A DNA stretch of 64,000 bases, from contig CAYOLL010000010.1 in NCBI GenBank assembly GCA_964404765.1, forward strand, positions 159-64,158. The letters run 5' to 3'. Below are positions 16,335-59,264 of the stretch, in pieces. The position numbers and the translations under genes are program-made. Source of the stretch: an uncultured Gemmatimonadota bacterium (lineage in GTDB: Bacteria > 4572-55). The notes beneath the pieces were generated by a model. It made no database searches. It was given only the letters and a program-made list of their open reading frames with translations, and had not been told where the DNA came from. Positions within the stretch are counted from its first letter, which is position 1. Each line of letters begins with the position of its first letter.

Positions 16335-16648
16335 CCGCTATTCAACCCATTCTTAAAAATGTGCGCGCACAACTTAACGAACTGTACGGGAAGCGTTTAA
16401 GCCGAATTATTTTATATGGCTCATACGCTCGCGGTGACGCAACCGAACAATCGGATATCGATTTGCTGATCGTGCTCAAAAAAATGACTCGGCCCGGCGC
16501 AGAAATTGATCGCATGGGCGCTCTGATCACCGATATCAATCTTGACCAAGATGTTTTGATTTCAATTTATCCTATTTTGGAATCGGACTATCAATCACTC
16601 AACAGCCCACTGTTAATTAATGTCCGTCGGGAGGGGGTTGTGGTATGA
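16331..16648 (+). CDS. Minimal nucleotidyltransferase (MNT) antitoxin-like
   Basis: ILYGSYARGDATEQSDIDLLIV. Confidence 0.9.
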   Translation: MTAIQPILKNVRAQLNELYGKRLSRIILYGSYARGDATEQSDIDLLIVLKKMTRPGAEIDRMGALITDINLDQDVLISIYPILESDYQSLNSPLLINVRREGVVV

Positions 16649-25240: not shown

Positions 25241-25480
25241 TTTTATTCATTCATTTTAAGAATAACCTTGCGAAGGTTCACGCTGGGGAGTTCGGTGATC
25301 CATGAAAGTATTGACTCCGCAACAAGTTTAACCTTCGCAAGGTTACTTGCATCAGCATTCCATTTTATTCATTCATTTTTAAGAATAACCTTGCGCAGGT
25401 TCACGCTGGGGAGTTCGGTGAACCTTGAAAGTCTTGACTCCGCAACAAGTTTAATCTTCGCAAGGTTACCTGCATCCATT
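25241..25480. repeat. Tandem duplication (about 123-bp period) of an AACCTTGCGAAGGTT REP unit
   Basis: Units at 25264-25344 and 25387-25467, each preceded by TTTTATTCATTCATTTT(T)AAGAAT. Confidence 0.85.
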
Positions 25481-27224: not shown

Positions 27225-27256
27225 GAAATGACATTTCTCCAAGAAATGTCATTTCT
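27224..27256. repeat. 33-bp double palindrome AGAAATGACATTTCT-CCA-AGAAATGTCATTTCT, intergenic copy
   Basis: Identical to 32480-32512 and 53025-53057. Confidence 0.92.
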
Positions 27257-37662: not shown

Positions 37663-37732
37663 AAACCCGTTCATTCGAGGTGACTGTGTGCTCAGCCATA
37701 CAGGTCTGTTTTTTAATTCAGCATGTTTTTTC

Positions 37733-37767: not shown

Positions 37768-37879
37768 ATGGTGCGCCCGGAAACCGATGTGGCGGCCCAA
37801 TTTCTAAATTTCTCTATTTGGCGACTCTTGCACAAGAGTTGCGCCAATTGAATAGATCGATTGGCGCAACTCTTTTTTT
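37768..37879 (+). promoter_or_regulatory. Candidate attenuator in the module-2 leader (terminator, competing antiterminator, 27-codon uORF)
   Basis: 15-bp perfect stem 37834-37848/37860-37874 plus T tract; alternative pairing 37818-37830 with 37833-37847; uORF 37768-37851. Confidence 0.6.
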
Positions 37880-37965
37880 ATTCCTATAAAAAGCCTTCGC
37901 TGGCAAAAATTTCATCGCTTATTCATGCTGCATTTTATCACCTCGATCCGGAAAGGAATCCAAAA

Positions 37966-39642: not shown

Positions 39643-39798
39643 GTCCGACTTGAATCGCGAAAAGCTTTACCGCAGAGTAACGCAAAGGTTGGCGCAGAGT
39701 TACGCCAAGGAAACTCAGCGAAACTCTGCGATAAACTTTGCGCGACTCTGCGGTAAAAAACAGCCTTTACAGCGCATATCTCACACCGAGGTGATCCA

Positions 39799-42700: not shown

Positions 42701-45700
42701 ATGTGGGTCTGGGTTCGAATATTCGCATCGCTCAGGCCGATGAACTGAAGCTGTCGGGCTGCGCCTTGCAGATCGGCACAGCCATTGTCGCCGATTCGCT
42801 GGGTATCGAGTCCACATATCTCTATACCGATCATCACATCCGCAACGTTCTGCTGCCCGAACTGACGGCGCTGCTCGTCGCCTCTAGGGATTCGGTAAGG
42901 GCGGGCCAGACCCAATTTGCAGCAGATACACTACGCTATTTCAGATCTATCCGGAACTGGACAGCTATTGTGGATACCAATGCGGCGCTCAAAGCCATGG
43001 CGGTTGAAGATCCCAACCGGCTGACGCAATCGCTCTCCTTTGACAGTAACTTCGGCGGCTACACCATTACCAATACCCGGAATGAGACCCACTCCCAAAC
43101 GTACGAGCATATGCTTTACGATGAGAATGGCGTCGAATTTGATCTTCGTATCAAGCTTTTTGGGGTCGTCCTGCCGGGCCCGGGTCATATTAAAGCGCTG
43201 TATACTCATAGTGAAACGGTCAGCCAGAACCTGAGTACGGGAGCCCTCCCGGGCCCGTTTCCAAATGGAAACTCCGGCGGCTACGACTCCACCTGGACGC
43301 GCACCACCAGCGTCACCTTAGCCGATAACGACCCGGATGACTATTTTTGGATCCAGATTTACGATGACGGCGTCTATGGCAATGTCTATAAACTCGTCGG
43401 CGGGGCCACGACCTGTCCGTGGGAGCCGGGTACGCTGCCACGCCAGGGTACCCAGGTGGAGATGATCGGCTCCACCTCCGGCGGCTACAACGAGATCAAC
43501 ATCCCGCCCGATCAAGCGGCGATCTATAAGCTGATTTTAGTAAATACCAGTCAGACCTTTGAAGATTGGTATTACGATGTGTCAATTTCGCAGGATGTGA
43601 ACCCAGAGGGCGCGATCCAAAAGATTAACGGCTACGATCCGGCGGCGATTGTCTCCGTCTTAGTGCCGGGTCAATTTGGCAACAACACCCTGGAAATGAT
43701 GCTGACCGTCGAACGCGGCCCCATCGCCTACGATTATGAGGATTTAGAAGCGGGCTTAGAGTCCACTTGTGAGGTCGATATCGCGGAAATTCAGCTCGGT
43801 GAAACGGTGCAGTGCGGCCCCGGCGGCGGCCCCGATGAACCGTGCGCGCATTGGTTTCAATATTTGACCCAATACGATGTTCACTTCCTTAAGCCGTGCA
43901 GCGACGTGCGCATTACCGCGCCCAACGATAACATCACGATGACCGCCGCCAGCGATAGCCTGAAGCTGACCCTGGCCGGATATGACCGGAACAATACGGA
44001 TTTTAAAGAAATCCAATTGCAATACAGGCCCGCGCCGCCCGGCCCCAGCCGCGCTGCAATGGGCAATGGACAATGGGCCATGGGCAATTCGCAATTAAGC
44101 TCATCTCGTTCTCAGGTTGCACTTGGGAACGCAGATGCTAAAACGGAAATTGCTAATTCTCAATTGACTTCTCCGAATGAAGCTGCTGTTGAAGCGCGGC
44201 CTGCGTCGGCGAAACAACCCATGATGGGCGTCAGACGAGCCAATGACCGGATCGAGTGGATTCCAATTGCGCCGTACGAAGAGACATACGCGCAAGTGAT
44301 GCGCGAAAACGAGCCGCCTTCGACCCAAAGCGACTGGATTACCTTTGACACCATTAGCCGGAGCGACATCCCCGCGTCGCCGGGCTACCTGATTCATCCT
44401 TGGTACATCAAGGACCTGGCCGATGGCAAATATGAAGTGCGGGCGGTGGCCGCCTGCAACAATCTGGACAACCTGAAAGGCTATTCCCGGACGCTGCACT
44501 TTACGCAGGAGCGCAAACGTCCGGCGGTGATCGCCACCGAGCCGGGCGACCAGGTTTTGCAGTTGGGCGATGCCATCTCCGTTACCTTCGACGAGGCTCT
44601 GGATTGCAGCCGCATTATTGAGGCCAACAGCCTGTTTTTGAACAACATCGGCTTGTACAATACGGAGAATAGCAGCCTGGTGAATATTGCCATTTCTTGT
44701 TTGGATAATCAAATTTTTGCGCAGGTGGAAAATCCGGAGGCCGTCTACCCGTTCCTGGAAAATAAAACCGTGCGGCTCAAGCTGGCCCAGATCAAAGACC
44801 TGGCCGGAAACATTATGGACGCCAATCCGAGTTCTGCGCCGGTGGATACGGTTTACAACTTTGAGTTTTATGTGAATCGCAATCCGATTGCCTGGGAAGG
44901 CGGCGATGTCACTGCCGTCAAGTATGATGACGAAGTCGCCACCATCACTCGGAAATTGATCAACAACGGCGCGTCACCGATGGACTTTAGCTTTATGGAT
45001 TTGACCCCCAATCCGGGCCGCGACACCTTGCGTGTGCCGAGTTGGATGACGGTAACGCCCATGAGCGGGACGGTCAACCCGGGCACGGCCAAAATCATCT
45101 CCCTGACCTTTGACGCCGATTTGATCGGCGGTAATTATGCGCATGAACTCAGGGCCAGAACCACGATGGGCGACGAGCCGATGCTGGTTGATCTGCAAAA
45201 TCTGTGTCATCCGCCGGACTGGCCGCTGGCTCTGTACGAGTATGAGTTCAACATGACCATTGCCGGAAAAATCGTATCCACGGAGTATCCGGTCTCGGAA
45301 TTCCTGACCATTGCGGCCTTTGTGGGTTCGGAAGTTCGCGGCAAGGCGGTTATTGAATTTGACAGTGTGGTCAACGACACCTTGTTCTACATGGTCGTCG
45401 GCAGCGACTCCATTTCCGGCGAGCCGGTTACGCTGCGGGTCTGGGACGGCCTGGTGTGCGTCGAAGTCGGCAGTTCGATTGGCGCGTTTACCTTTGCCGC
45501 CAATAGCGAGATCGGCAGCCCAAGCAATCCGCACGTCTTTGACATCACCGGTCAGTCGGCGGCGGAAGTCCGCTTTAACCCCGGCTGGAACTGGTTTTCG
45601 ATCAACATGGCGATGACCGACCTGGGCATCAACACCGTGCTGGAAGGTCTTTCGCCGGCCTCAGGCGACTTGATTAAGAGTCAAAGCCAATTTAGCCAAT

Positions 45701-46785
45701 ACGTGGCCGGGCTGGGTTGGGTCGGTTCTCTGAGCACGCTGAACAACAAGGCCATGTACATGCTCAAACTGACCGCAGCGGACAACATGAATATTTTCGG
45801 CACGCCGATCAAGCTGGCCCTGAACACCATTCCGATTCAACCTGGTTGGAATTGGATCAGCTACCAGCCCGTGCGGGCGCAGCCGATCAATGTGTCGTTA
45901 GCGTCCTTAACCACCGTTGCCAATGGTGATTTGATCAAAAATCAGTATGCTTTTGCCCAGTATGTAGCCGGTCTGGGCTGGGTGGGCAACCTGGATTATT
46001 TGGAACCGAGCATGGGCTACATGCTCAAAGCCGCCAACCCGGGAACATTGAGCTTTCCGTGGCCGCCTCCGCTGGCATTGATGGCGGCTGCGACGGTTTC
46101 GACCGCCGCTGAAATTGGCAATTCTCAATTGGCCATTGCCAATTGGCAATTCGATCCGGCCCAATTTGAGCACAACATGACCGTCACCGGGGAAATCTCG
46201 CAATCTTCAATCCCCAATCCGCAATGGGCGGTTGGCGCTTTTGTCGGCGACGAATGCCGCGGCACGGCCGAGCCGGTCTACATCGAATCACTGCAAAAAA
46301 CGCTTTTCTTTTTGCTGATTCATAGTAATCAGGCCTCCGGCGAGACGGTGGAATTTCGTCTGCTCGATCAAGGCGACGCAAGCGAATATGCTGCCGATCA
46401 AATTGTCAAGTTTGAAGCCAACGCTTCGCTTGGCGACATCGAATCGTCCTTCGTCTGGACGGCAAGGCCTTTGGATGCGGAAAGCAAGCCCGATGCTCTG
46501 CCGATGCACTTTGCGCTGGCCCAAAACCGGCCCAATCCTTTTGCCGCTTTTACGACCATTCAATACGCCCTGCCAAAGGATGCGAATGTAGAACTCTCTA
46601 TCTACAACGTGGCCGGCCAAAAGGTGCGGACGCTGGTGAATGAGCGGCAAGCGGCGGGTTATCGCAGCGTGAATTGGGACGGCAAGAATGATACGGGCGA
46701 GGCGGTCAACGCGGGCGTGTATTTTTATCGCCTGAAGACGGACGCGGGGTTTGAGGCGACGCGGAAGTTGTTGCTTGTTAAATAA
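39799..46785 (+). CDS. Giant secreted protein 2 (2328 aa), paralog of giant 1 with one LamG domain and FlgD-Ig/T9SS-type CTD
   Basis: Shared GFVNPNGT, RDPPGD, DND..D.FW...Y.DG..G..(F/Y)KLV.G...CPWE.GT, VNRNP.AW.GGDVT and CTD motifs. Confidence 0.85.
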   Translation: MTNSYNLDNDDRNRAAKTPPFRLLLLIFSLLLLVLPELGRVEAAGISQGLFTYGATMPKTKSQSTEGHRIIGTFGQTLDGESQAVSQTVAGDKLHSIFFGLWGFYKLPPLSPFVTASDGDHADRIVITWKFDVLSSPPTQGYKVYRNNTLLIGLPAGENFFNDVNVYPGQVYNYGVTGISLTGEGGVGSDPGFVNPNGTITGHIQTSQQRPVIGADVGITPNLGQALVFDGADDYAVLSKTVALNGSSFTVEFWAKRAAAGTADNVIGLGDVATTRQALTIGFQSNNKFVFSFLGDSLVTTAAYTETDWHHWAVTYNKTTKARAIYRDGRPVATNTAGNHFAGSGDLWLGKARGGGYFGGSIDDVRIWSKTRSEAELTLDMNRAKQGNEDSLTAYWKLDEGNSSFVFDLTAHNHDGKVYDGGSLSAVWSADIAPVRNTGFTNTDGNYIINGIYYGTGTTFTVTPKMDVPVDTTLFSHEFSPGSRIVTLNTSNTATDGVDFTDISLIPVSGFVQYANTLCFPDSVEILVNGESQIPKVYTNTQGAFTVELNPGGDYRLTPVYKDHSFAPVFQDVLSLVSPQAGLAFVDTKVRTLTVRVYGGPTSCMSSIRPTSGTMSVTFASTDGCYTRTENITSGNNLTLTNLPPLNYALTLNHPAALSVDGVTVSLKDTTGITRDLVYRKSMTVNVTGLPTPDPACAAGYTLPLDGGTTLNNLSILTQLNSYSANVDVYESYTEFSGGVTCAIDTGYVTIYNAIGDSVQPAVRPLRKVNANTSRLVTPYTFKAGRPNFTSGGQYPYAKSLEVGVRELLPNLDPETAEDTPFLDGREGSGITRAYVLGIRKRDGGFTTLLQNPILPLYILRDPPGDASFATMSNETQFSTRYKVSFSNGFEAGLDLNFGGDTKVTTCAGIGVAVCTMTLDTQFSQTIHLIDLKVEHTTLKEMQITSTFSESFSTLAEEYRVGEDMDLYVGLGSNIRIAQADELKLSGCALQIGTAIVADSLGIESTYLYTDHHIRNVLLPELTALLVASRDSVRAGQTQFAADTLRYFRSIRNWTAIVDTNAALKAMAVEDPNRLTQSLSFDSNFGGYTITNTRNETHSQTYEHMLYDENGVEFDLRIKLFGVVLPGPGHIKALYTHSETVSQNLSTGALPGPFPNGNSGGYDSTWTRTTSVTLADNDPDDYFWIQIYDDGVYGNVYKLVGGATTCPWEPGTLPRQGTQVEMIGSTSGGYNEINIPPDQAAIYKLILVNTSQTFEDWYYDVSISQDVNPEGAIQKINGYDPAAIVSVLVPGQFGNNTLEMMLTVERGPIAYDYEDLEAGLESTCEVDIAEIQLGETVQCGPGGGPDEPCAHWFQYLTQYDVHFLKPCSDVRITAPNDNITMTAASDSLKLTLAGYDRNNTDFKEIQLQYRPAPPGPSRAAMGNGQWAMGNSQLSSSRSQVALGNADAKTEIANSQLTSPNEAAVEARPASAKQPMMGVRRANDRIEWIPIAPYEETYAQVMRENEPPSTQSDWITFDTISRSDIPASPGYLIHPWYIKDLADGKYEVRAVAACNNLDNLKGYSRTLHFTQERKRPAVIATEPGDQVLQLGDAISVTFDEALDCSRIIEANSLFLNNIGLYNTENSSLVNIAISCLDNQIFAQVENPEAVYPFLENKTVRLKLAQIKDLAGNIMDANPSSAPVDTVYNFEFYVNRNPIAWEGGDVTAVKYDDEVATITRKLINNGASPMDFSFMDLTPNPGRDTLRVPSWMTVTPMSGTVNPGTAKIISLTFDADLIGGNYAHELRARTTMGDEPMLVDLQNLCHPPDWPLALYEYEFNMTIAGKIVSTEYPVSEFLTIAAFVGSEVRGKAVIEFDSVVNDTLFYMVVGSDSISGEPVTLRVWDGLVCVEVGSSIGAFTFAANSEIGSPSNPHVFDITGQSAAEVRFNPGWNWFSINMAMTDLGINTVLEGLSPASGDLIKSQSQFSQYVAGLGWVGSLSTLNNKAMYMLKLTAADNMNIFGTPIKLALNTIPIQPGWNWISYQPVRAQPINVSLASLTTVANGDLIKNQYAFAQYVAGLGWVGNLDYLEPSMGYMLKAANPGTLSFPWPPPLALMAAATVSTAAEIGNSQLAIANWQFDPAQFEHNMTVTGEISQSSIPNPQWAVGAFVGDECRGTAEPVYIESLQKTLFFLLIHSNQASGETVEFRLLDQGDASEYAADQIVKFEANASLGDIESSFVWTARPLDAESKPDALPMHFALAQNRPNPFAAFTTIQYALPKDANVELSIYNVAGQKVRTLVNERQAAGYRSVNWDGKNDTGEAVNAGVYFYRLKTDAGFEATRKLLLVK

Positions 46786-46810
46786 TCCATAATCCATGCT
46801 AAGATGATTA

Positions 46811-46853
46811 AATGGGCGGGAGACGCGATAGTGATCTTCCGCCCATTCTTTTT
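46811..46853 (+). terminator. Terminator-like hairpin just inside the island's left end
   Basis: AATGGGCGGGA...TTCCGCCCATT followed by CTTTTT. Confidence 0.6.
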
Positions 46854-47079
46854 CGACAAAATATGTGCCATGAAATTCATACTGACGAAGACGGAAATTC
46901 ATGGTGCACCTCCGGGGCATGGATTATTCAACTCTTTTTACAGAGGTTTTACGCTTCAAAATGCCGATAGTTTGAACCATCATTTCAAACAAAACAATTG
47001 GCAAACTGCTTTTAGTGCCATATCTTAACGATCGCTTTTAACTAATCCAAACATTAACCTCCCTTCAAAAAAGGTCACG

Positions 47080-50000
47080 ATGACTCAGCTAAAACCCGGC
47101 ATGATTATCGAAGGACCATTCTGGCCCGAATTCGTCGAGATTCGACAAATCGAAGAATTGGGTGACTATTATCAGATTTCCGGCTTGACGAAGAACACCC
47201 ACCAGCATGTTGATCAACTCCTTTCGCAAAGCGACATGGCCAAAATCAGAGTGATTGGGGTGGATCGGCTTTTTGCCGAAGATGCCTGGAAAGTTTTTTT
47301 GGCGTTAGAGACCATCCGTTTCCGTTATGCTTCGTTGTATGATCCGTTGTTGGCCATGAATACCTCCAAAATTGACCCTTTACCTCACCAAATTGAAGCG
47401 GTTTACGGCTATGTGCTGCAATTACCTCGAATTCGCTTTTTGATTGCCGACGATCCGGGCGCCGGTAAAACAATTATGGCCGGATTGATCATCAAAGAGC
47501 TTAAAATTCGACACATGGCCAAGCGCATTTTGATTGTTGCGCCGGGGCATTTAAAAGACCAGTGGCAGCGCGAAATGCGCGAGCGTTTCTCCGAAAATTT
47601 TGTCGTGGTGGATCGTGGCTTTGTGGATGGATTTTATGGCGAAAATGTTTGGGCCAGAGAAAATCAATTAGTCACTTCCATAGATTTTGCTAAACGGGAT
47701 GAAGTGTTGCCGGCCATTTCGGCGGCCCGCTTTGATTTGATCATTGTGGATGAAGCGCATAAGATGAGCGCTTATCGTTACGGCGATAAAATTGACCGCA
47801 CCAGTCGCTACAAGTTGGGTGAAGTTTTATCCAAAAGCACCGAGCACCTATTGTTTTTGACGGCCACGCCGCATCGGGGTGATCAGGAGAATTTCCGCTT
47901 GTTTTTGGATCTGCTCGTGCCGGGCTTCTTTGCCACCAAACAGCAATTGGAAAAATCCGCTCAAGATAAGGATAACCCGCTTTTTATTCGCCGGGTCAAG
48001 GAAGATTTGAAAGATTTTGAGGGTAAACCCTTGTTTTTGCCGCGTCATGTCACCACCAAAGCCTTCAATCTGCGTAGCGAATCCCCAACTGAGCAAGACT
48101 TGTATAATGATCTTTCCAAATATGTGGTAGAGCAATACAACAAAGCCTTAACGAGGGACAAAAAGCGCAATGTCGCCTTTGCTCTGGTCATTCTGCAGCG
48201 CCGCTTGGCTTCTAGCACATACGCGGTTTTAAAGTCGTTGGAACGACGCAAAAAACGTCTTGAGGATATGTTAGAAGGCGCATCACAATTTGAAAAGCCC
48301 GGATTTGATGCCGATGTGGACGCAACTGATGACATGAACGAAGAAGAGCGTTGGAAAGAGGAAGAACTTTGGGAAACATTGAGTGTGGCCGAAAATCGGG
48401 AAGAATTAAAGAAAGAAGTAACCATTATTGAAAGTTTGATCCAAAAAGCCAAAAGTATCATCCACAACGAAGAAGAAATCAAACTTAAGCATTTTAGAGA
48501 TGCGTTAAAATCACTGCATGAACGGGTGACCGATCCGAAAGAACGGAAAATTCTTGTTTTTACAGAATCAAAGGATACGCTGGAATATCTGGAGAAAAAA
48601 GTCAACGAATGGGGTTATCGAATCAACACCATTCACGGCAGCATGAAATTGGATGAGCGGGTCAAGGCTGAGAGCGTTTTCAAGAATGAAACGGATGTGA
48701 TGATTGCCACGGAAGCCGCCGGCGAAGGCATTAACCTGCAATTCTGCCATTTGATGATCAATTACGATCTGCCCTGGAATCCAAACCGACTCGAACAGCG
48801 GATGGGTCGGATTCATCGCTATGGTCAAACGAAAGAAGTACAGATTGTCAATTTGGTCGCGGAAGATACCCGCGAAGGCGCGGTCATGTGCCGGCTGTTT
48901 CAAAAGCTGGATGAAATCCGGCAGGCGATGGGCAACGACAAAGTTTTTGATATGATTGGCAACATACTCTACGAAAAGAATTTGTCCCAATTGTTGGTTG
49001 AAGCAGCCGCTAATGCCCGTAGCATGGATGAAATTTTAAAAGACATGAATATTGTCGTCGACGAAGAGTATATTAGCAAAATAAAAATCAGTCTGGATGA
49101 AAGCTTAGCTACACACTTTATCGACTATACCCGCATCGCTGACATGGCCCAAAAAGCCCGCGAATATCGTTTGATTCCTGAGTACACTGAAGCATTTTTC
49201 ATAAAAGCCTTTTCACGGGCTGGCGGCAAATTCAGGTTATTGAAAAACGGCTTTATTGTCATTGACAGCATTCCCTTAGTCATTCGTCAGATTACCGGTA
49301 ATTTCAATTTTATCAAAACTTACGGCAAGTTGGACAAATACAACCGCATTACCTTCGACAAGGAGGTGGCTTTTAAAAATCCCGATGCCGAATTTGTCAC
49401 CTTTGGTCATCCGCTTTTTGAAGCAGTCATGCGCTGGATTGAAACCACTTTTGCCGAAACCGTTTTGAACGGCGCAACTTTTATTGATCCCGATGGCCGC
49501 ATGGATGGCTATTTGCTGTATTACGAGGCAGAAATCAAAGACGGCGCTAACACTATCGCCGGAAAAAGACTGTTTACGCTCTATGCCACTGCCACAGAAG
49601 TTATTCCTGTTTTTCCGGCCATTATTTGGGATTTGCAAGAAGCCACATCTCCCCAAATTGAAACCCTTGATCTGGAAGCGCTGAAAAAGCAAACTTTCGC
49701 TAAAGTCATTCCCATCCTGGAAGCCTATAAAGGCGAACTCTTAAAAGAACGGCAACGGCAGGCCGGGATAAAAGAAAAATACGGTATTACGTCCCTGAAT
49801 CATCTGATTTACGAGCTGGAAGAAGACTTGATCAAATTGAACGAGCGCAAGCTTCAGGGCGAAGCCATTGACTTGCCCATCCGCAATAAGGAAGAGCAAA
49901 AAGCCCGCTATTTGTACGCCCTGGAAAGCTTGAAAAAGCAGATTGAGCAGGAAAAAAATCTGGCTATGACCCGCCCGCGTTTTGTGGGCGCGCTGCGCGT

Positions 50001-50409
50001 TGTGCCCAATACAACGACGGATGCCGAAATGACCGAAAGCGTAGAAATCGAACACATCGGCATGGCCGAGGCCATGCGCTACGAGCGGGAGCAAGGCCGC
50101 GAACCCGAGGATGTTTCGGCGGAAAATTTGGGATTTGATATTCGTTCCAGAGAGAAAAACGGCGTCACCCGCTATATCGAAGTCAAAGCCCGCGCTGCTA
50201 CCGGGGCCGTCATACTGACGCAAAACGAGTGGTTCAAGGCCAAACGGTTTCAGCGGGATTATTATTTGTACGCCGTCCTAAACGCAGCCACCACACCGCA
50301 ACTGTATCTCGTCCAAAATCCGGCGCACAGCCTCAAACCCCAGGAGATTGCCGAATCCGTGCGTTATCTGATACCGTATCAAGAAATCCTCAACAACCGG
50401 CTGGCATAA
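47080..50409 (+). CDS. SNF2-family helicase with C-terminal DUF3883-like (PD-(D/E)xK) nuclease domain
   Basis: LPHQIEAV, ADDPGAGKT, IVDEAHK, LTATPH, ATEAAGEGINLQ, WNPNRLEQRMGRIHRYGQ; C-terminal GFDIRS...YIEVKAR. Confidence 0.92.
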   Translation: MTQLKPGMIIEGPFWPEFVEIRQIEELGDYYQISGLTKNTHQHVDQLLSQSDMAKIRVIGVDRLFAEDAWKVFLALETIRFRYASLYDPLLAMNTSKIDPLPHQIEAVYGYVLQLPRIRFLIADDPGAGKTIMAGLIIKELKIRHMAKRILIVAPGHLKDQWQREMRERFSENFVVVDRGFVDGFYGENVWARENQLVTSIDFAKRDEVLPAISAARFDLIIVDEAHKMSAYRYGDKIDRTSRYKLGEVLSKSTEHLLFLTATPHRGDQENFRLFLDLLVPGFFATKQQLEKSAQDKDNPLFIRRVKEDLKDFEGKPLFLPRHVTTKAFNLRSESPTEQDLYNDLSKYVVEQYNKALTRDKKRNVAFALVILQRRLASSTYAVLKSLERRKKRLEDMLEGASQFEKPGFDADVDATDDMNEEERWKEEELWETLSVAENREELKKEVTIIESLIQKAKSIIHNEEEIKLKHFRDALKSLHERVTDPKERKILVFTESKDTLEYLEKKVNEWGYRINTIHGSMKLDERVKAESVFKNETDVMIATEAAGEGINLQFCHLMINYDLPWNPNRLEQRMGRIHRYGQTKEVQIVNLVAEDTREGAVMCRLFQKLDEIRQAMGNDKVFDMIGNILYEKNLSQLLVEAAANARSMDEILKDMNIVVDEEYISKIKISLDESLATHFIDYTRIADMAQKAREYRLIPEYTEAFFIKAFSRAGGKFRLLKNGFIVIDSIPLVIRQITGNFNFIKTYGKLDKYNRITFDKEVAFKNPDAEFVTFGHPLFEAVMRWIETTFAETVLNGATFIDPDGRMDGYLLYYEAEIKDGANTIAGKRLFTLYATATEVIPVFPAIIWDLQEATSPQIETLDLEALKKQTFAKVIPILEAYKGELLKERQRQAGIKEKYGITSLNHLIYELEEDLIKLNERKLQGEAIDLPIRNKEEQKARYLYALESLKKQIEQEKNLAMTRPRFVGALRVVPNTTTDAEMTESVEIEHIGMAEAMRYEREQGREPEDVSAENLGFDIRSREKNGVTRYIEVKARAATGAVILTQNEWFKAKRFQRDYYLYAVLNAATTPQLYLVQNPAHSLKPQEIAESVRYLIPYQEILNNRLA

Positions 50410-50419
50410 GGAGAATAAT

Positions 50420-52135
50420 GTGCTGTCGCATGTGAGTATCCGAAATTTCAAACGCTTTGAATACATTGAAGTTGACCTGAATAACGCCGTCGTCTTTATC
50501 GGGCCGAATAATTGCGGTAAAACATCCGCCTTGCAAGCTTTGGCCTTGTGGGAATTGGGCGTCCGACGCTGGACCGAAAAGCGCGGTTTAAATGCGCCAT
50601 CGGCTAAACGCTCCGGGGTAGCCTTAAACCGGAACGATCTTCTTGCCATTCCCATTCCGACGACAAATTTGTTGTGGCGCGATCTCCATGTTCGTTCTAT
50701 CAAAAACCCCGGCGCTCGCGAAACAAAACCGCAAAACATCCGCATCGAAATTAAGGTGGACGGCGTGACGGAAGACAAAATCTGGTCGTGCGGACTGGAA
50801 TTTGACTACGCCAATGAAGAATCCCTTTACTGCCGCCCGCTCAATTCCGCCGAGCACGGACGAATCGGCGTTCCCCCGGAAGCGACAAATATTCGGGTCG
50901 CTTTTTTGCCGCCCATGTCCGGCCTGGCCGCCATTGAACCCAAATGGGAACCGGGCCGCATCAAGGTGCTGTTGGGCGAGGGTCAAACCGCGCAAGTGCT
51001 GCGAAACTTATGCTGGCAGGTTTATGAAAAGCGCACCGACGATTGGGCGGAAATAACCGGCCTGATTCAGCGCTATTTTGGTGTGGAATTACTGCCTCCC
51101 GAACACATCGGCGAGCGCGGCGAAATTCGCATGGCCTATCGGGAAGCAACCGGTACGCGCCTGGATTTATCCTCCGCCGGACGAGGTTTGCAACAAACGC
51201 TGTTATTGCTAACCCATTTATACGCCAATCCCCAAACCGTTCTACTGCTGGATGAACCCGATGCTCATCTGGAAATTTTGCGTCAGCGACATCTCTATCA
51301 AATGTTGACGGAAACCGCCGGACGGCAAAGTTCGCAAGTCATTATCGCCAGTCATTCCGAGGTCATTTTAAACGAAGCCGCCGGACGGGATATGGTGATT
51401 GCCTTTGTCGGGCAACCGCATCGGCTGAACGACCGGGGCAGTCAACTTCTCAAATCTCTGCGCGACATCAGTTTCGATCATTATTATCAGGCCGAACAAA
51501 CCGGCTGGGTGCTGTATCTGGAAGGCTCGACCGATCTGGCCGTTTTGCAAACCCTGGCCAAACAATTGAACCATCCCGCAGCGAGCCTGTTGGAACGCCC
51601 GTTTGTGCATTACGTGGCCAATCAGCCGCAAAAAGCCAGAGATCATTTCTTCGGCTTGCGCGAGGCTAAAAAAGACCTGGTGGGCCTGGCTTTGTTTGAT
51701 CGCTTAGAGAAAACCGTCCCAACGGACTCGTCCTTAGTTGAATTGACCTGGCGGCGACGCGAACTGGAAAACTACCTCTGCTCCGAAGCCGTGCTGCTGG
51801 CCTACGCCCGCCACGATCAACCCTTCGATCTGTTTGGCGCGGCGGAAGCCAATCGCCGTGAGCAGACCATGCGCGAGGCAATCAACGAAATGACCGCCGC
51901 TTTAAAAGTCCTGCGCAAGTTGGAGCCGTGGTCCCCGGACGTTAAAGCGTCCGATGACTTTTTGGATCGGCTTTTTGAAATCTACTTTGAAAAATTACAA
52001 CTGCCCAATCTCATGCGCAAAACCGACTATCACGTTCTGGCCCGTTTTGTGCCCGCAGATCAAATTGATCCGGAAATCACCGAAAAATTAGACGCCATCG
52101 TCGCTATCGCCCAAAAAGCCCAACCATGCCAATAA
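50420..52135 (+). CDS. OLD-like ABC/AAA ATPase with C-terminal TOPRIM-type domain
   Basis: IRNFKRF, Walker A GPNNCGKT, signature-like SSAGRG, Walker B LLLDEPDAH, ASHS, TOPRIM-like YLEGSTD and RELENY. Confidence 0.8.
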   Translation: MLSHVSIRNFKRFEYIEVDLNNAVVFIGPNNCGKTSALQALALWELGVRRWTEKRGLNAPSAKRSGVALNRNDLLAIPIPTTNLLWRDLHVRSIKNPGARETKPQNIRIEIKVDGVTEDKIWSCGLEFDYANEESLYCRPLNSAEHGRIGVPPEATNIRVAFLPPMSGLAAIEPKWEPGRIKVLLGEGQTAQVLRNLCWQVYEKRTDDWAEITGLIQRYFGVELLPPEHIGERGEIRMAYREATGTRLDLSSAGRGLQQTLLLLTHLYANPQTVLLLDEPDAHLEILRQRHLYQMLTETAGRQSSQVIIASHSEVILNEAAGRDMVIAFVGQPHRLNDRGSQLLKSLRDISFDHYYQAEQTGWVLYLEGSTDLAVLQTLAKQLNHPAASLLERPFVHYVANQPQKARDHFFGLREAKKDLVGLALFDRLEKTVPTDSSLVELTWRRRELENYLCSEAVLLAYARHDQPFDLFGAAEANRREQTMREAINEMTAALKVLRKLEPWSPDVKASDDFLDRLFEIYFEKLQLPNLMRKTDYHVLARFVPADQIDPEITEKLDAIVAIAQKAQPCQ

Positions 52136-52175
52136 GGAGTAGCAAATTTTAATTTGCCCGCTTGCCCGCGCCAAG

Positions 52176-52204
52176 AGATTCCATCTTTTGAAAAGATGGA
52201 GTCT
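52176..52204. repeat. 29-bp hairpin AGATTCCATCTTTT-G-AAAAGATGGAGTCT between ATPase and methylase
   Basis: 14-bp stem with one G-T pair. Confidence 0.6.
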
Positions 52205-52226
52205 GAATTTTCAATAAGGAATTATA

Positions 52227-55136
52227 ATGAACCCCAAACACAAACGCTTTATCGAAGAAACCTTCCCGGTCAAAGAAGTCAGCGAAGCCTCGGCCAAAGA
52301 GAAGAACATCCGGCACGGCCATATCTCCACGCTGCATATCTGGTGGGCCCGCCGTCCGCTGGCCGCCTCGCGAGCCACGGCTTACGCAGCCTTGACGCCC
52401 GCGCCCAAAAACGAGCAGGAACGCATCGAAAAGAAAAAGTTCATTGCCGAACTGGCCCAATGGGAAAACTCGCTCAACCCGGAACTGCTGGCCAAAGCCC
52501 GGCAGGACATTCTGGACGCCAATGGCGGTGTGCCGCCCCGCGTGCTCGACCCATTTGGTGGCGGTGGGTCTATTCCATTGGAGGCTTTGCGCCTGGGCTG
52601 CGAAACTTATTCCAATGACCTGAACCCGGTGGCCGTGCTGATCCAAAAATGCACCCTGGAATATCCGCAAAAATACGGCCAACCGATTCCCCGCAGCCAA
52701 TATATGGCCGAACGCCCCTGGCTCGGTTCCAGCCCGGAAAAATCCAAAAAGAAAAGTCGCCAGACCGATTTGCAGCAGGAGGAAACGGTCAACCCGTTGC
52801 TGGAAGATGTGAAATATTGGGGCAATTGGGTTCTTCAGGAGGCCAAAAAAGAACTGGCGCAATTTTATCCGGCTGATGCGGATGGCGGCGTGCCGGTCGG
52901 CTATATCTGGGCGCGGACCATTCCCTGCCAAAACCCGGCCTGCGGCGCGAAAATTCCGCTGATGCGTCAGTTCTGGTTAGCCAAAAAGGACAAGAAAAAA
53001 GTCTCTCTTTTTCCCTACGTGGAAAGAAATGACATTTCTCCAAGAAATGTCATTTCTAAAGTTTTGTTTAAAATTGTTGGCGATGGCTACGCCGACTGGC
53101 CGGCCGGTTTTGACCCGGAAGATGGCACCGTAGCCCGGGCCGTGGCCGTATGCCCATGCTGCGGCGGCACAACCGCCGATAAGGATACCCGCCGCCTGTT
53201 CCGCGAAGGACAGGCCGGACAGCGGATGATTGCCGTCGTGTTGAATCCTGCTGTAAAGGTGGCCGGGGAGAGGACAAAAGGCAAGCGTTACCGCCTGGCC
53301 ACCGCCGACGACATGGTCGTGTTTAACCGGGCCGCCGCCTATTTGCAGGAAAAGCGCGAACGGCTGATGGCCGAATGGGGCATGGACCCGGTGCCGGATG
53401 AAGAAACCCCGGAAGGCAAAGGACGTGGTGCTGAACGAGCTTTTTCAATACGAAATTACGGCATGTTGAAATGGGGTGATCTGTTCAATCCCCGCCAACA
53501 ATTGGCTGTGATCTCCTTTGCCGATGCGGTTCGCCGCGCACATCCCAAAATGATCGCACAAAGCTGCGAGGCGGAATATGCTAAGGCGATTGTGAGTTAT
53601 TTAGGATTAACTATTGATAGGCTTATAACGAGAAATTCAAACATTTGTGTATGGCATAATGGATCAGAAAATGTTGAAAAAGTTTATGCTATACAGGTAC
53701 TCCCTATGAAGTGGGAGTACCCTGAAAGTAATCCAATTATTGGAGAAAATGTCACAGCTTTCATGGGAAATTTGAATTCAGTTCTAAATGTGATTGATGA
53801 TTTATCAAAAATTGCTTCTGAAAATTTGGAAAATATTAATATTAAAAACACTTCCGCCACTAATCTACATTACTCTGACAATTTTTTTAGCGCCGTTTTA
53901 ACCGATCCGCCTTATTATGACAATGTGCCGTATTCCTATTTATCCGACTTTTTCTATGTTTGGCTCAAGCGCACATTGGGAACTGTCCATCCTGATCTTT
54001 TTTCCACGCCGCTAACGCCCAAAAAGAATGAGATTGTCGCCTATTCCAACATCGAAGGCGGTTTTGAAGCCGGTAAACAATTCTTTGAGACGATGCTCAA
54101 AAAATCCTTTCAGGAAATGCACCGCGTCCTCAAGCCTAACGGTATCGCCATTATTGTTTATGCTCATAAATCCACCGAAGGCTGGGAAACGCTGATCAAT
54201 TCTTTGCTGGATTCTGGTTTGATCGTCACCGGGGCGTATCCAATTCATACGGAAATGCAAAGCCGCTTGCGGGCCAGTGAATCGGCAGCTTTAGCCTCGT
54301 CCATCTACCTCATCGCCCGCAAAATGGATCGTCGGCCCACCGGCTTTTATGACGACATCCGCCGCGACCTGAAAACCCATCTGGATCAAAAATTGGATAT
54401 GCTGTGGAACGAAGGCATCGGCGGGGCCGACTTCTTTATCGCTGCCATCGGCTCGGCCATCGAGGTCTTTGGTCAATACGAAAAAGTCATGGACGATAGC
54501 GGGGCCATCATCCGCGCCAACACTTTGCTGGCCGATGTGCGCAAGTTGGTCACCGACTATGCCGTCAAAAAAATCCTGCGCAACGGCTTTGCCGGGGAAG
54601 TGACCAATATCACCCGTTTCTACGTGCTCTATCGCTGGAGCCTCGGCGCGGCCAAAGCCCCCTTTGACGATGCTCACAAACTGGCCCAGAGTTGCAGCGT
54701 GGAACTCAAGGACGTGTGGAACAGCAGCGGTTTTGTGGTCAAGGACAAGGAATTTGTCAAAGTCCTCGGCCCGCACGAGCGCAAGCTGGAGGACATCAAG
54801 AGCGATTCGGGCGAATTAATTGATGCGTTGCATTTGGTTTTAAATCTATGGGAAAAGAGTCGGCGCGACGACCTGGTGGCGGTCTTGCAGCAGAGCGGCT
54901 TTGGCCGCAGCGAAGCCTTTTATCGCGTGGCCCAGGCCATCTCCGAAACGCTGCCCAACGACAGCAAGGAGAAAAAGCTGCTGGACGGCTTTTTGGCCGG
55001 ACGCGCCCGCGTGGAAAAAGAGGTCAAGGAACTGAAAGTCGGCCCGTATCAAACGGGCAAGAAGAAAAGCAAAGAAGCATCCCCCGATCAAATGGAATTG
55101 GGTTTAACAGTGCAAGAAGGAGGTCAAGACGAATGA
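52227..55136 (+). CDS. DUF1156 adenine-specific DNA methyltransferase
   Basis: [17 protein letters not shown]-binding [11 protein letters not shown], Zn-finger CxxC pairs, catalytic TDPPYYDN. Confidence 0.9.
53025..53057. repeat. 33-bp double palindrome in frame in the methylase
   Basis: Encodes [11 protein letters not shown] in FPYVE|[11 protein letters not shown]|KVLFKIVG; identical to 27224-27256 and 32480-32512. Confidence 0.92.
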
Positions 55137-57706
55137 AACCGTTTCATACTGTAGCTGTGCCGCATGACGATGTGGCGCAAGGCAATTTCTCATTAGATGT
55201 CTACGCCGCTAATTTATGGGATGTGCGGCTGAATACCGGCGTAGAAGAATATCGGGACGCCGAGCGTTTCTTTAAAAAAACGCATATGACAATTGGATTA
55301 AATAACCTTTTGGTTGATGTGGAAAACCGATTGTGCGGACGCGGCGGCGATCCGGTCATTCAATTGCAAACACCTTTTGGCGGCGGCAAAACCCACGCCC
55401 TGATTGCCATGTATCACAAGGCAAAACTATGGGGCGCCAAGCCGGTGGCCATCGTCGGCGAAAAGCTCAATACGGGCTCCAAGGTGACGGATTTTGATAC
55501 TTTTTGGGGACAAATGGAAGAGCAGCTCACCGGGGGACGGGCAGAGTTTTCGAGTCATGTGCCGCCCGGCGGGGATCAGATTCGCCGGTTTCTGGAGAAA
55601 CATCAACCGGTCTTGATTTTGATTGATGAACCCATTCCGTATTTGAATACAGCCGATGCGGTCGCGGTGGGCAACGCGCCTTTAACCACATTGACGTTGA
55701 CATTTATTCAGAATTTGACCAACGTCGCAAGCGAAATGTCCGGCGTTGCATTAGCCCTGACAACCACGCCGAGCAATCCGTATAATAATACCGAGCGCGG
55801 GTCCTGGATTGCCCAACAGCTTCAGAGTATCACAGGTCGTCGAGAGATTATTAAGTCACCTGTTCAGGACGACGAGGTGCAGCATATTATCCGTAAACGA
55901 CTTTTTAAACCATTTGAGGACGCGGAGATCAAACCGATTGTTACTGCGTTTGTAGATTATGCCGACAAAAACGGCATTTTGCCGGGCAATGTTCAACCGG
56001 GTGAATACCGGGATCGTTTTATGGCTTCTTATCCGTTTTTGCCGGAGGTCGTTGATGTACTTTATCATCGCTGGGGCACATTTCCAAAATTTCAGCGGAC
56101 GCGGGGGGTATTGCGTTTTCTTTCGCTGATTGTTCACACCTTAGCCAAGTCAAAAAGCGACTACATCAGTCTGGCGGATGTGGATTTGAGTGTTCAGGAA
56201 ATTCGACAAGAATTGATCAAACACATTGGCATAGAATATAACAGCGTTATTGCGGCAGACATTACCAATCCCAACTCCGGCAGCAAGCGGGTTGATGAGA
56301 ATCTGGGCAGTTCCTATCGCGGTCTGAAGTTAGGCGTCCGGGCGGCCACCACGATTTTTATGTATTCATTTTCCGGGGCGATGGGCGAGCCGGGCGTTAC
56401 ATCCGGGGAAATCAAGCGGCAAGCCACCACGCTGGATAATCCGGCCAGCATCGTCACCGAAGCGTTGGAGCAGTTCAAGACGCGGCTGTTCTATCTGCAA
56501 AATCCGGGCGACAAATACTATTTCAAAAATCAGTCCAACTTAAATTTGGTCTTGCTCAATCGCATGGAAAACGTGCGGGAAGAGGACATGCGCCAACGCG
56601 AGCATGATTTGATCAAACAGAATTGTCAGGGCAAAGTTTTTGAGCCGTATCTCTGGAAAGAAAATCCGGCTGATGTGGCTGATAACGAACGGTTTAAGCT
56701 GGTGATCTTGCGCCAGAAAAATGAGTCAATCATGCAGGCCATTTTAAAGAACAAGGGCCAGTCGCCACGTATTTACACCAATACCATTTTCTTTCTATGT
56801 TCGCAGGATACGGCGCACACGGGTTTTCTCAACCAACTCAAGCGGGCGCTGGCTTATGAAAGCATTGAGCGTGACGCGGCTTCGCTGCAACTCTCCGAGG
56901 AGCAGAAAAAACAGGTGCGGGATGATTTGAAAAAGGCCAAGAATGATTTAACCGACGCCATTCGCGGTTTATATCGTCTGATTGTTTATGCAGATAAAAA
57001 CGGTTTGGAGACGATTGACATGGGCAACCCTACCTACGGTTCCTATCGCGGCATGGATGCGGAAGTATTCGAAGCGCTCAAATCAAAAGGCCGTATTCTG
57101 GACAGGTTAGCGCCGATTGTCCTGAAAGAAAAGTATCTGACTCAAAATTCGTATGTTGAAACTGAGAAATTGTATAATGCCTCGCTCAATACGCCCGGCG
57201 AGAAGTGCTTCAGTGTCCCGCGTGTGTTGGAAGATTGCATTCGGGAAGGCGTCAAAAACGGACTTTTCGGCCTGGGCGAGTTAGAGAACGGCGAGGTTAA
57301 GTGTCGGTTCTATCCAAAAGATAATCCCACAGTTTCTTTAGCCGGAAGTGAGATTATTATTGCGGAATATCTGTGCATCAAACCGAAGCCCGCAGAAGTG
57401 GAAAAGCCGTATGATATACCAGCCCCGGAAGGCAGCCTTGCCAAAGAACCGGAGCACAAGAAAGAAATCGTTGCCCCGACCGGACGAAATCAACTCCAGC
57501 TACGGTTTGAAATTCCACGCGGAAAAGTATCGAACATGATGGGCATTCTGAATTATCTTCATTCAAAATTTGGGAAGTTGGAGCTTAGCGTAACGGCTAC
57601 AAATGGCAGCGTGACGGATCAGGAGTTTGAGGATAAAGTGGCGGAAGCGTTCCGGCAGTTGGGCATTGAGCCTGAGGAATCGCCTAAAGACGGACGCGGG
57701 GTTTGA
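55133..57706 (+). CDS. DUF499 AAA+ ATPase
   Basis: Start moved to ATG 55133 (ATGA overlap, GGAGG RBS); FFKKTHMT, Walker [31 protein letters not shown]; stop TGA lies inside the right att-like repeat. Confidence 0.88.
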
Positions 57707-57765
57707 GGCAACGCGGAAGCTGCTGTTGATCAAATAACCCGGAGCGTCATAGAAGTGCCTGACAG

Positions 57766-57807
57766 GCGGTCGTATGAAAGGTAACTTTCGTACAACCGCT
57801 TTTTTTT
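57766..57807 (+). terminator. Terminator homologous to 35165-35206 (displaced module terminator)
   Basis: GCGGTCGTATGAAAG-GTAA-CTTTCGTACAACCGC plus T8. Confidence 0.85.
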
Positions 57808-57835
57808 GATATGGAGGATGCCATGCGTTTTTTTA

Positions 57836-58053
57836 ACAGGACTTGGTAGGTTAATGCACAATCCTCGTTCCCAAATTCTATTTTGGAACGCTTTTGCAGA
57901 CGGAATTGTGCTTCGTGTCTTGTTAATTTGGTTGAAGATAGGCGGAGACAGAGTTTCCGTGGCAAGTGCATTTCCAATCAGAGATTGGGAATGAGGTCCG
58001 TCGCTCAAATTCAAGTCAGACGGGCATTGCTAAAATAATCTTCCAAGTCCTGT
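57836..58053. mobile_element. 218-bp MITE-like element, ACAGGACTTGG family, copy 2, carrying a CTCGTTCCC REP (57864-57995)
   Basis: ACAGGACTTGGTAGGTTA / TAATCTTCCAAGTCCTGT termini; same length as 35777-35994 but unrelated interior; no TSD seen. Confidence 0.68.
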
Positions 58054-58076
58054 ATGGAAGCCTTCTTGAAGTAAAA

Positions 58077-58109
58077 AGCCTCTCGGCCTTCGGGTCGAGG
58101 GCTTTTTTT
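58077..58109 (+). terminator. Intrinsic terminator with UUCG loop
   Basis: AGCCTCTCGGCC-TTCG-GGTCGAGGGC followed by T7. Confidence 0.7.
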
Positions 58110-58373
58110 ATTGGCATTTAGGAGCTTGAATAATATCTTTGAACTCTGAGTCGGACAAACTGAAAAAGCATGGAATGCGGAAGAAGCAACTCTGCAGGAT
58201 TAACCCGGATCAAGATTCGTTCTCTTAGGCATTTACAGCCCGTTGAGCGAACTCGAACAAGAGAAAACCGTTTATTATTCCGTAGGAATAGGAATCTACA
58301 GCATTTATAGCTATAACTGAGAATCCATTTGAAACTCAAGACGGACGCTGGGAATGAGGGAGGACATATCGTG

Positions 58374-59264
58374 ATGAGAATTTTTTTGATAAGCCAATTA
58401 ATGGTTGTTTTTCTGGGCGCGCTGCAAGCGCAATCATTTGCCGATAGCACGATGGTCTATATTTACAACGCGCCGGAATCCGTGCTTGATCGTCGCTATG
58501 ATTATCAATGGGAAATATTAAAAACGGCCCTGGAAAAAACAACGGCTAAATACGGCGGCTATCGTTTGGAGCCGGCTGTTTCAATGTCGGAAGCGCGCCA
58601 GGCGCATGAGCTGAAAAATGTGACCGGCAGACTGACGGTGATGTATTTGGATACAAATCCGGAATTTGAAAAAACGCTTCTTCCGGTGCGGATTCCCGTT
58701 GATAAAAACCTGGTTGGCTTCCGTGTTTTTCTCATTCGCAAGGAAGATCAGCCCAAATTTCAGGCCATAAAGACACTGGATGATCTGCGGAAGTTTTCCA
58801 TTGGCGCGGGATCGGATTGGGCGGATGTGGCTATCCTCCGCAAAAGTGGTTTTACCGTGGTCACCGGCTCAGCTTATGACGGGCTGTTCGATATGCTGCA
58901 CAACAAGCGCTTTGATATTTTTTCGAGAGGAGCTGTTGAAATCATTGATGAATACGAGCAGCGCAAGGAAAAAATGCCCGATCTGCATATTGAGGAAACC
59001 ATTCTGCTTTATTACCCGTTGCCAATGTACTTTTGGTTTTCCAACACGCCGGCAGGCGCGCGTTTGGCCGAACGAGCCAAAGCCGGAATGCTGATGATGA
59101 TTGATGATGGAACGTACGACGCCATTTTTTTGAAATATCACCGGAAAGACATCAAAAAACTCAACTTGAAGGGCCGGAAAATATTTAAGATCGAAAACCC
59201 GCTCCTGGCGCCGGAGACCCCTTTTGATAACAAGCGTCTGTGGTATGATCCGTTGAAAAATTAA
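58374..59264 (+). CDS. Periplasmic substrate-binding protein (PBP2 / family 3-like)
   Basis: GGAGGA RBS then GTG/ATG (58371/58374); signal-like N-terminus; PVRIPVDKNLVGFRVFLI, LFDMLHNKRFDIFSRG, YYPLPMYFW. Confidence 0.75.
   Translation: MRIFLISQLMVVFLGALQAQSFADSTMVYIYNAPESVLDRRYDYQWEILKTALEKTTAKYGGYRLEPAVSMSEARQAHELKNVTGRLTVMYLDTNPEFEKTLLPVRIPVDKNLVGFRVFLIRKEDQPKFQAIKTLDDLRKFSIGAGSDWADVAILRKSGFTVVTGSAYDGLFDMLHNKRFDIFSRGAVEIIDEYEQRKEKMPDLHIEETILLYYPLPMYFWFSNTPAGARLAERAKAGMLMMIDDGTYDAIFLKYHRKDIKKLNLKGRKIFKIENPLLAPETPFDNKRLWYDPLKN

Follow-up and report, generated by a model that had tools for sequence, protein, structure and literature searches.

Orphaned 3′ gene tips left behind after homology-facilitated illegitimate uptake of DNA have been described at Rhs and type VI secretion system (T6SS) effector loci (PMC5361080; PMC3240628), and cis-mobilizable elements (CIMEs), which are flanked by attachment (att) sites and have no integrase, are an established category (PMC5704250). 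Defence systems of the Hma kind (helicase-methylase-ATPase), for which the earlier account cited dates from 2021 (PMC8565338), contain embedded genes in 62.7% of 1,485 cases, with ABC ATPases as the commonest embedded family (bioRxiv 10.1101/2024.01.29.577857). Here we analysed a window of 64,000 bases of contig CAYOLL010000010.1 (recorded as 65,579 bp), from an uncultured Gemmatimonadota bacterium, in which a predicted Hma system of 11 kb lies between the intact end of a giant gene (giant 2), encoding a type IX secretion system (T9SS) sorting signal, and an orphan copy of the last 59 bp of such a gene. An earlier account made from the letters of the DNA, the sequence-only reading, had taken these two gene ends as the attachment sites of an integrated cassette. 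Our comparisons point elsewhere: we propose, with moderate confidence, that the orphan is the stump of a lost or displaced gene end resembling that of a second, upstream giant gene (giant 1), and that it would have come to adjoin the Hma genes through a one-off illegitimate junction.

The repeat that bounds the island is as the sequence-only reading described it. The last 59 bp of giant 2 recur directly after the coding sequence specific to hmaC, with 86% identity and an exact 23-bp core, and the eight differences between the two tails leave the peptides distinguished only by an I/V exchange; one of these, a synonymous CTG/CTA difference, lies 5′ of the core and the other seven lie 3′ of it. 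The core 23-mer, AAGACGGACGCGGGGTTTGAGGC, is present exactly three times in the window, against 0.00 expected from 100 shuffles, and intact copies are restricted to the ends of the two giants and the orphan. Upstream of the orphan tail, the coding sequence for the remainder of the C-terminal domain (CTD) is absent. Both giants reach the curated cutoff for a T9SS type A sorting domain and are assigned to it on that basis, in line with what had been claimed for the flanking gene (TIGR04183, 39.8 bits against a cutoff of 23). The TIGR04183 match spans model positions 3–70 of 72 in each giant and reaches the end of the protein; Pfam PF18962 alone stays below its cutoff (23.4 versus 27), and FlgD_ig is above its own.

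The relationship that carries our interpretation is that between the orphan and giant 1. The right copy had been reported to share its last 51 bp with the giant 1 end, and these positions are indeed identical (51 of 51, orphan 57687–57737 against giant 1 34931–34981). The existence of a shared unit thus stands, and its extent had been understated: the unit common to the two loci is 129 bp long (117 of 129 positions identical) and comprises the last 59 bp of coding sequence (57 of 59) and 70 bp of non-coding DNA (approximately 86%) through the T-run of the terminator. As had also been noted, the module terminator follows the right copy and a different one follows the left. Terminator M′, after the orphan, matches the terminator of giant 1 (M) at 53 of 59 positions, whereas terminator L, after giant 2, is unrelated to M and sits within a stretch flanked by an 11-bp inverted repeat (46789–46799 and 46917–46927). 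All three terminators are predicted to fold much more stably than shuffled controls (Table 1). M′ is now predicted to terminate the Hma operon. Homology between the orphan and giant 1 loci stops at the terminator T-run, and the DNA beyond differs. The giant 1 copy of the 129-bp unit is split by a miniature inverted-repeat transposable element (MITE) of 140 bp, whereas the orphan locus keeps the uninterrupted site. As judged from these alignments, the specific relationship of the orphan is to the giant 1 end, including its non-coding terminator, and not to the giant 2 tail.

The two giants are themselves old paralogues. They align by blastn in patches of 63–82% identity, at about 71% over the last 1.2 kb, with longest exact matches of 35, 35 and 26 bp, and in no stretch does giant 2 come as near to giant 1 as the orphan does to the giant 1 end. 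Their homology stops right past the giant 2 stop codon (last aligned base 46786), and no DNA beyond it aligns. Between the two tails there are six synonymous-type changes and one conservative I/V exchange. A sharp drop in identity at the core was sought as the mark of an imported giant 2 tail and was absent: identity in the preceding CTD-coding sequence forms a mosaic of 65–95% per 60 nt, and the 87% of the tail falls within that range. The giant 2 tail therefore looks native, with nothing in its sequence marking import. Given that the giants are old paralogues and that the orphan is closest to the giant 1 end, the 86% direct repeat with giant 2 amounts to ordinary paralogy. As part of the same joint explanation, we consider the chances about even that the likeness of the orphan and giant 2 tails reflects paralogy of a strongly conserved T9SS sorting motif and not an attL/attR pair. 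The earlier interpretation thus divides: a defence island, a sorting domain, the lack of an integrase and a borrowed stop codon all stand, whereas an att pair with a tail brought in by the element is not supported, as the orphan matches giant 1 and the giant 2 tail is native-like.

The borrowed stop codon belongs to hmaC, the DUF499 gene. Its TGA (57704–57706) falls inside the core, and the last eight or nine codons of HmaC are read, together with that stop, from the orphan repeat. The gene starts at the ATG at 55133, overlapping the hmaB stop (a start at 54848 was corrected), and its product is full length, with 857 residues compared with 832–866 in 119 homologues (49–54% identical, among the matches listed). 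Those 119 homologues, again among the matches listed, end a modal 5 residues (mostly 1–10) past a conserved FRQLGI motif. The HmaC of the window continues for 12 residues past it, EPEE and then SPKDGRGV, and from the serine on these are orphan repeat. The CTD homology begins abruptly at 57679/57680, where it abuts hmaC sequence, and hmaC would normally stop no more than one or two codons away from this junction. Because variable HmaC C-termini are tolerated, and because any junction from the last codons into the spacer would leave a working operon, this precision is only a modest coincidence.

The segment between the repeats (46786–57678) contains four co-oriented genes. HmaA, HmaB and HmaC, all strong PADLOC matches, are each present once, on the + strand and with intact open reading frames (ORFs), as the PADLOC Hma definition requires, and a single gene is embedded between hmaA and hmaB, where up to three are allowed between adjacent hma genes. 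The 11-kb segment is accordingly a predicted Hma anti-phage system with one embedded ABC-ATPase gene, which bears out its earlier description as a defence island, and on sequence identity it is a divergent, new member of an already described defence type. No TOPRIM or nuclease domain was found in the C-terminal half of the embedded ATPase, whose last ~250 residues match no Pfam family. Overall GC content is 0.53 in the embedded ATPase gene, compared with 0.46 in hmaA and 0.49 in hmaC. At third codon positions (GC3) it is 0.53 in hmaA, 0.55 in hmaC and 0.59–0.60 in the embedded gene and hmaB, compared with 0.68–0.69 in the giants and 0.59–0.64 in other host genes. The low GC3, with nearest relatives only 54% identical and in unrelated phyla, fits an island of mosaic DNA that was acquired horizontally.

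A 33-nt double palindrome, AGAAATGACATTTCT-CCA-AGAAATGTCATTTCT, is found both inside and outside the island. One copy lies between the Peptidase_S74-domain gene S74-1 and giant 1 (27224–27256), a second lies in giant 1 (32480–32512) and the third is inserted in hmaB (53025–53057). In both genes the palindrome is translated in the same frame, to an 11-residue stretch, and two HmaB homologues show a 9-residue gap against the palindrome-encoded stretch of the window HmaB. The repeat resembles the in-frame palindromic elements (RPEs) of Rickettsia. A resident palindrome inside hmaB indicates that the island has been in this genome long enough to be colonised, and argues against an assembly chimera.

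We suggest a history in which the Hma system was acquired horizontally and has become resident in this genome, and in which the right repeat with its terminator (129 bp together) would be what remains, at the 3′ tip, of a gene end like that of giant 1. Its source could be another giant paralogue, the third, which once lay downstream of the Hma genes and has since been lost, or a gene that previously resided here. A single illegitimate junction, non-homologous or microhomology-based, would have joined it to the last codons of hmaC, either through deletion of a downstream module or through incoming DNA that ended at hmaC and displaced the resident gene ('3′-end displacement'). The second route would be a case of homology-facilitated illegitimate recombination, with the incoming DNA anchored by homology on its left, within the giant or the CTD sequence, and joined illegitimately on its right. 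The anatomy agrees with such a displacement: downstream of an intact family member, and separated from it by non-family DNA, lies a co-oriented orphan 3′ fragment of a family gene, and one junction is non-homologous. The stump would now provide HmaC with its eight or nine extra residues, its stop codon and its terminator. Read in this way, the locus would be a divergent Hma system lodged where giant T9SS-secreted proteins form a tandem array in decay, with an orphan gene tip co-opted as the stop codon and terminator of the operon.

Several points weigh against a stump. It requires an extra, lost gene copy or a large replacement, whereas integration at a 3′ end requires one event, and the classical anatomy of that process (cargo that separates a complete gene, its tail variant, from a following orphan tail and the family terminator) is present here. 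Searches of the spacers by tblastn revealed no trace of a third giant or S74 gene near the island. The coincidence of the junction with the modal HmaC stop has a chance of roughly 5–20% by our own rough estimate. The orphan and giant 1 tails differ at two positions only, both in the first 8 bp, beside the junction, and at one of these the orphan has the giant 2 base (post hoc p ~0.016). Finally, an isolated, degenerate fourth copy of the core, without flanking CTD homology, lies ~600 bp downstream of the orphan in the same orientation and hints that the 23-mer may recur at boundaries; none of 30 shuffles contained a match with ≤4 mismatches, of which we estimate that ~0.001 would be expected per window. 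This fourth copy overlaps the leader and ribosome-binding site of the next gene and is in frame with the longest ORF of that gene.

Some of these points would be expected if the island were an integrase-less, CIME-like defence cassette of 10.95 kb that had integrated in the giant 2 core, either site-specifically or through a single Campbell-type crossover of a circle. Under this model, which we judge unlikely, attL (46727–46785) would be an element-borne tail followed by terminator L, attR (57679–57737) would be the original giant 2 tail with its terminator, and the recombinase would have acted in trans. The family terminator does follow the orphan and not giant 2, and the position of the hmaC stop codon inside the core means that hmaC would end identically in a circular form. 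The orphan also has the mosaic expected of a crossover in the core, as its left 8 bp match giant 2 at 7 of 8 positions and giant 1 at 6 of 8, whereas its right 51 bp are of the giant 1 type. The fourth core-like site downstream is a further point in favour, as is the precedent of CIMEs that have lost their integrase. What speaks most directly against integration is the orphan itself, which together with its non-coding terminator is about 91% identical to the giant 1 end, although the giants are ~71% identical to each other and cannot be aligned outside the coding sequence. To account for this, the model needs a gene-conversion tract from giant 1 to giant 2 whose edge coincides with the insertion point, and the supposedly imported giant 2 tail shows the synonymous-only divergence of a native paralogue.

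The searches for mobility functions bear on the same model. No recombinase was recognised with Pfam and NCBIfam in the island genes or in window ORFs of recombinase size that were not explained by a longer gene on the opposite strand, in agreement with the claim that the island has no integrase, and the 294-bp left spacer holds no recombinase remnant. Neither tRNA genes nor Rfam families were detected in the window, terminal inverted repeats of the island were limited to chance-level pairs, and tblastn searches of the spacers 46786–47090 and 57738–58380 for giant, S74 or integrase remnants returned only REP-like (repetitive extragenic palindromic) matches. Neither a significant fold nor a palindrome is apparent in the core (z 0.13 and −0.79), which thus lacks the dyad symmetry that a recombinase site might show; by eye, it contains a weak imperfect inverted repeat (7 of 8 positions) about a spacer of ~13 bp. 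The exact 23-bp core had no match in three public collections, namely 185,579 representative genomes, JGI metagenome contigs and IMG/VR (2.9 million viral contigs), and this absence is uninformative on mobility because the lineage itself is unsampled.

The same sparse sampling is apparent at the protein level. The exact HmaC protein was found on no other contig, and its 90% cluster has one member. A collection of 5.8 billion proteins held no close relative of HmaC (best match 54%) or of the giant C-terminus, the best identity for the C-terminal 800 residues of giant 2 being 36%. A search for syntenic relatives through neighbouring genes likewise returned none, with best protein identities of 36–63%: the phosphoglucomutase/phosphomannomutase gene reached 56%, in unclassified, Calditrichota, Bacteroidota and Cloacimonadota metagenome-assembled genomes (MAGs), the downstream binding-protein-like gene 63%, in Rhodospirillaceae, and the downstream histidine kinase had generic matches only (≤51%). 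Because no syntenic relative is available, the missing empty site is not evidence either way.

A broader form of the integration model is similarly doubtful. It would make the 23-bp core a genuine att site in this FCB-group (Fibrobacteres–Chlorobi–Bacteroidetes) lineage, with tail-carrying cassettes moving among paralogous secreted-protein genes. There is likewise only a small chance, in our estimation, that such movement would have proceeded by a trans-acting recombinase or a Campbell-type crossover that restored the sorting signal, with the fourth core as the relic of an earlier event. If this were so, a sorting signal common to many paralogues would be a multi-copy landing pad for defence cassettes, and islands would have a new way to spread within a genome without an integrase of their own. 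The claim that the site is common to many paralogous genes had no support in the window, where the two giants are the only genes that carry the core in their coding ends.

Two further possibilities had been raised in the sequence-only reading, a remnant of a third giant gene, given there as the outcome that would count against an att pair, and a larger segment of 22.7 kb; each fits the sequence at least as well as the att pair. The first is one form of the stump that we favour. In the second, to which we give a somewhat lower probability than to the cassette, the relevant pair would be the giant 1 end and the orphan, as 129-bp copies bounding 35207–57678. This segment contains a diacylglycerol-kinase gene, S74 fragments, module 2 (S74-2 and giant 2) and the Hma genes, and it could have arisen as a composite insertion at the 3′ end of giant 1 or as a tandem duplication (−59 to hmaC) with the second copy mostly deleted. 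Paralogue arrays commonly undergo tandem duplication and later collapse. In length and similarity this pair exceeds all other repeat pairs (51 bp exact, 117 of 129 overall), its right edge is the end of a transcription unit, and the presence of the MITE in one copy only shows that the two 129-bp copies have diverged independently since. With ~9% divergence between the copies, any such event would be old. The duplication version requires at least two events, the second a deletion starting exactly after the terminator, and in the insertion version an element without mobility genes would have carried a giant module and a housekeeping-type kinase as cargo. The hmaC/tail junction is explained no better by this model than by the others.

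An assembly artefact, in which a chimeric metagenomic path through the 51-bp repeat or the 23-bp core joined the true downstream sequence of hmaC to a strain variant of the giant 1 end, is very improbable: exact repeats of 23–51 bp and many MITE- and REP-like repeats are present and the orphan locus looks like a MITE-free allele of the giant 1 end, but the CTD homology extends 8 bp to the left of the exact stretch, where it meets hmaC sequence that is unique, and an orphan core after hmaC must therefore exist in some molecule, the genome-specific 33-nt palindrome that HmaB shares with the giant 1 region places the island in the same genome, an artificial insertion of the island would need two independent mis-joins, and the sequence past the orphan terminator differs from that past the giant 1 terminator.

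The wider locus consists of two tandem modules, each a gene for a Peptidase_S74-domain protein followed by a giant LamG/Ig-repeat protein gene (Table 1). The placement of a gene for an intramolecular chaperone of the phage tail-fibre type (Peptidase_S74) before each giant T9SS protein gene is an unusual pairing. Between the two modules, on either side of the diacylglycerol-kinase gene (36215–36613), are pieces of a third S74-like gene, which are a record of module duplication and decay. A 196-residue ORF at 36910–37500 may be a pseudogene remnant or a short paralogue. T9SS core genes (PorU/V/K/L/M/N and Sov) were absent from this single window. Elsewhere, a nucleotidyltransferase/HEPN gene pair (16331–17031) is likely to be an MNT-HEPN toxin-antitoxin module, and another nucleotidyltransferase gene stands alone at 8993–9298.

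Table 1 Features of the locus, with positions counted from the first base of the window.
Feature	Position	Strand	Evidence or remarks
S74-1, Peptidase_S74 (endosialidase chaperone) domain, opens giant module 1	25497–27224	+	Pfam PF13884, E=7e-9
Giant 1, 2566 aa, LamG/Big_5 surface protein, T9SS type A C-terminal sorting domain	27281–34981	+	TIGR04183, 40.2 bits, cutoff 23
CTD-tail copy 1, end of giant 1	34923–34981	+	34931–34981 identical to orphan
MITE, 140 bp, between giant 1 stop codon and terminator	35002–35141		Terminal inverted repeats TGTACTAGTCA/TGACTAGTACA; target duplication TTTTATAGAA at 34989 and 35144
Terminator M, after giant 1	35148–35206	+	17-bp stem, T8; predicted fold −29.6 kcal/mol, z −6.2 (z values here and below: predicted terminator folds against shuffled controls)
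Third S74-like gene, fragments either side of diacylglycerol-kinase gene	36013–37151	+	~77–82% identical to S74-2
S74-2, opens giant module 2	37861–39642	+	Pfam PF13884, E=5e-9
Giant 2, 2328 aa, intact, T9SS type A sorting domain, old paralogue of giant 1	39799–46785	+	TIGR04183, 39.8 bits, cutoff 23
CTD-tail copy 2, end of giant 2 (left repeat)	46727–46785	+	
Terminator L, after giant 2	46811–46853	+	Hairpin and T-run, unrelated to M; predicted fold −27.8 kcal/mol, z −4.6
HmaA, SNF2/DEAD helicase with NOV_C domain	47080–50409	+	PADLOC E=1.4e-203; Pfam
Embedded ABC-type ATPase, AAA_15/AAA_21	50420–52135	+	OLD/GajA/AriA-like N-terminal half
HmaB, DUF1156 DNA methyltransferase	52227–55136	+	PADLOC E=1.7e-131
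33-nt double palindrome, in frame in HmaB	53025–53057	+	Identical to copy 27224–27256
HmaC, DUF499 ATPase, 857 aa, full length	55133–57706	+	PADLOC E=3.5e-110
Orphan CTD tail (right repeat)	57679–57737	+	57/59 to giant 1 end, 51/59 to giant 2 end
Terminator M′, after orphan	57749–57807	+	Hairpin and T8 at 57764–57807, z −4.5
Inverted-repeat-bounded element ACAGGACTTGG...CCAAGTCCTGT, REP-like palindromes inside	57836–58053		Second member at 35777–35994
Degenerate fourth core copy	58338–58360	+	19/23; just 5′ of the ribosome-binding site and ATG of the next gene
First gene past island, putative periplasmic-binding-like protein	58374–59264	+	No Pfam match; best relatives 63%, Rhodospirillaceae MAGs

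Many other repeats are resident in the window. The MITE in the giant 1 copy of the 129-bp unit belongs to a ~140-bp family with sister copies at 773–913 and 36757–36896. Both members of the ~220-bp family bounded by ACAGGACTTGG and CCAAGTCCTGT lie downstream of a module terminator, with differing interiors and no Rfam match. A cluster of REP-like palindromes at 32290–32515 (for example, CGTTCCCAAACTCTGTTTGGGAACG) forms part of the giant 1 reading frame and has relatives at 57863–57995 and 15482–15605. A self-complementary repeat of ~130 bp, rich in CGCAAAG/CTCTGCG, occurs at 37534–37667 and 39655–39787 (~85% identical), upstream of S74-2 and giant 2, and is probably another palindromic mobile or regulatory element. 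Just 5′ of S74-1 are two tandem 100-nt repeats (25254–25353 and 25377–25476, 94% identical), each with an inverted repeat (AACCTTGCGAAGGTT...).

Set beside known Hma systems, the locus has the same three co-oriented genes with a nested ABC-ATPase gene. Relatives from other phyla share the gene order, and one of them has AAA_15 and Schlafen-like genes embedded. The present system differs in that its nearest HmaC is only 54% identical, its HmaB carries the in-frame 33-nt palindromic insertion, the C-terminal 250 residues of its embedded ATPase fall outside any family and its HmaC is extended at the C-terminus by 8–9 residues read from the orphan T9SS-tail fragment. Flanking direct repeats were sought at two other sampled Hma loci and were absent from both.

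The likeness to integrative elements that insert at 3′ gene ends, and to CIMEs (PMC5704250), lies in an imperfect direct repeat with an intact gene end on one side and an orphan on the other, and in a gene that is kept whole by a replacement 3′ end; a defence system as cargo and, as in a CIME, a missing integrase are further points of likeness. In contrast to such elements, the orphan here matches a different paralogue (giant 1) and not the supposed target, and the core has no recognisable recombinase-binding symmetry and no known integrase of matching specificity. Integron cassettes also resemble the locus in having a recombination-site-like repeat at or over the stop codon of the last ORF and tandem units in one orientation. 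Here, however, the repeat has no attC-like fold (z ~0), an integron integrase and attI are missing and the units are multi-gene and up to 11 kb long. We rejected an integron cassette array on the unstructured repeat and the absence of an integrase.

A further parallel is with 3′-tip displacement at Rhs, contact-dependent inhibition (CDI) and T6SS loci (PMC5361080, PMC3150448, PMC3240628), where a conserved 3′ fragment likewise lies in the same orientation downstream of an intact member with acquired DNA between the two, where homology is confined to one of the two junctions, and where a recombinase is not needed. The present locus is a caution that, in paralogue arrays with strongly conserved 3′ motifs, any leftover tip will resemble an att repeat when it lies beside a neighbouring paralogue, and that the discriminating test is to ask which paralogue the orphan, above all its non-coding flank, is closest to. 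Displaced tips at Rhs, CDI and T6SS loci carry variable toxin and immunity modules and so diversify the toxin, whereas the tip here would be 59 bp of a secretion signal with its terminator, and the DNA that would have displaced the rest of the gene is an unrelated defence system.

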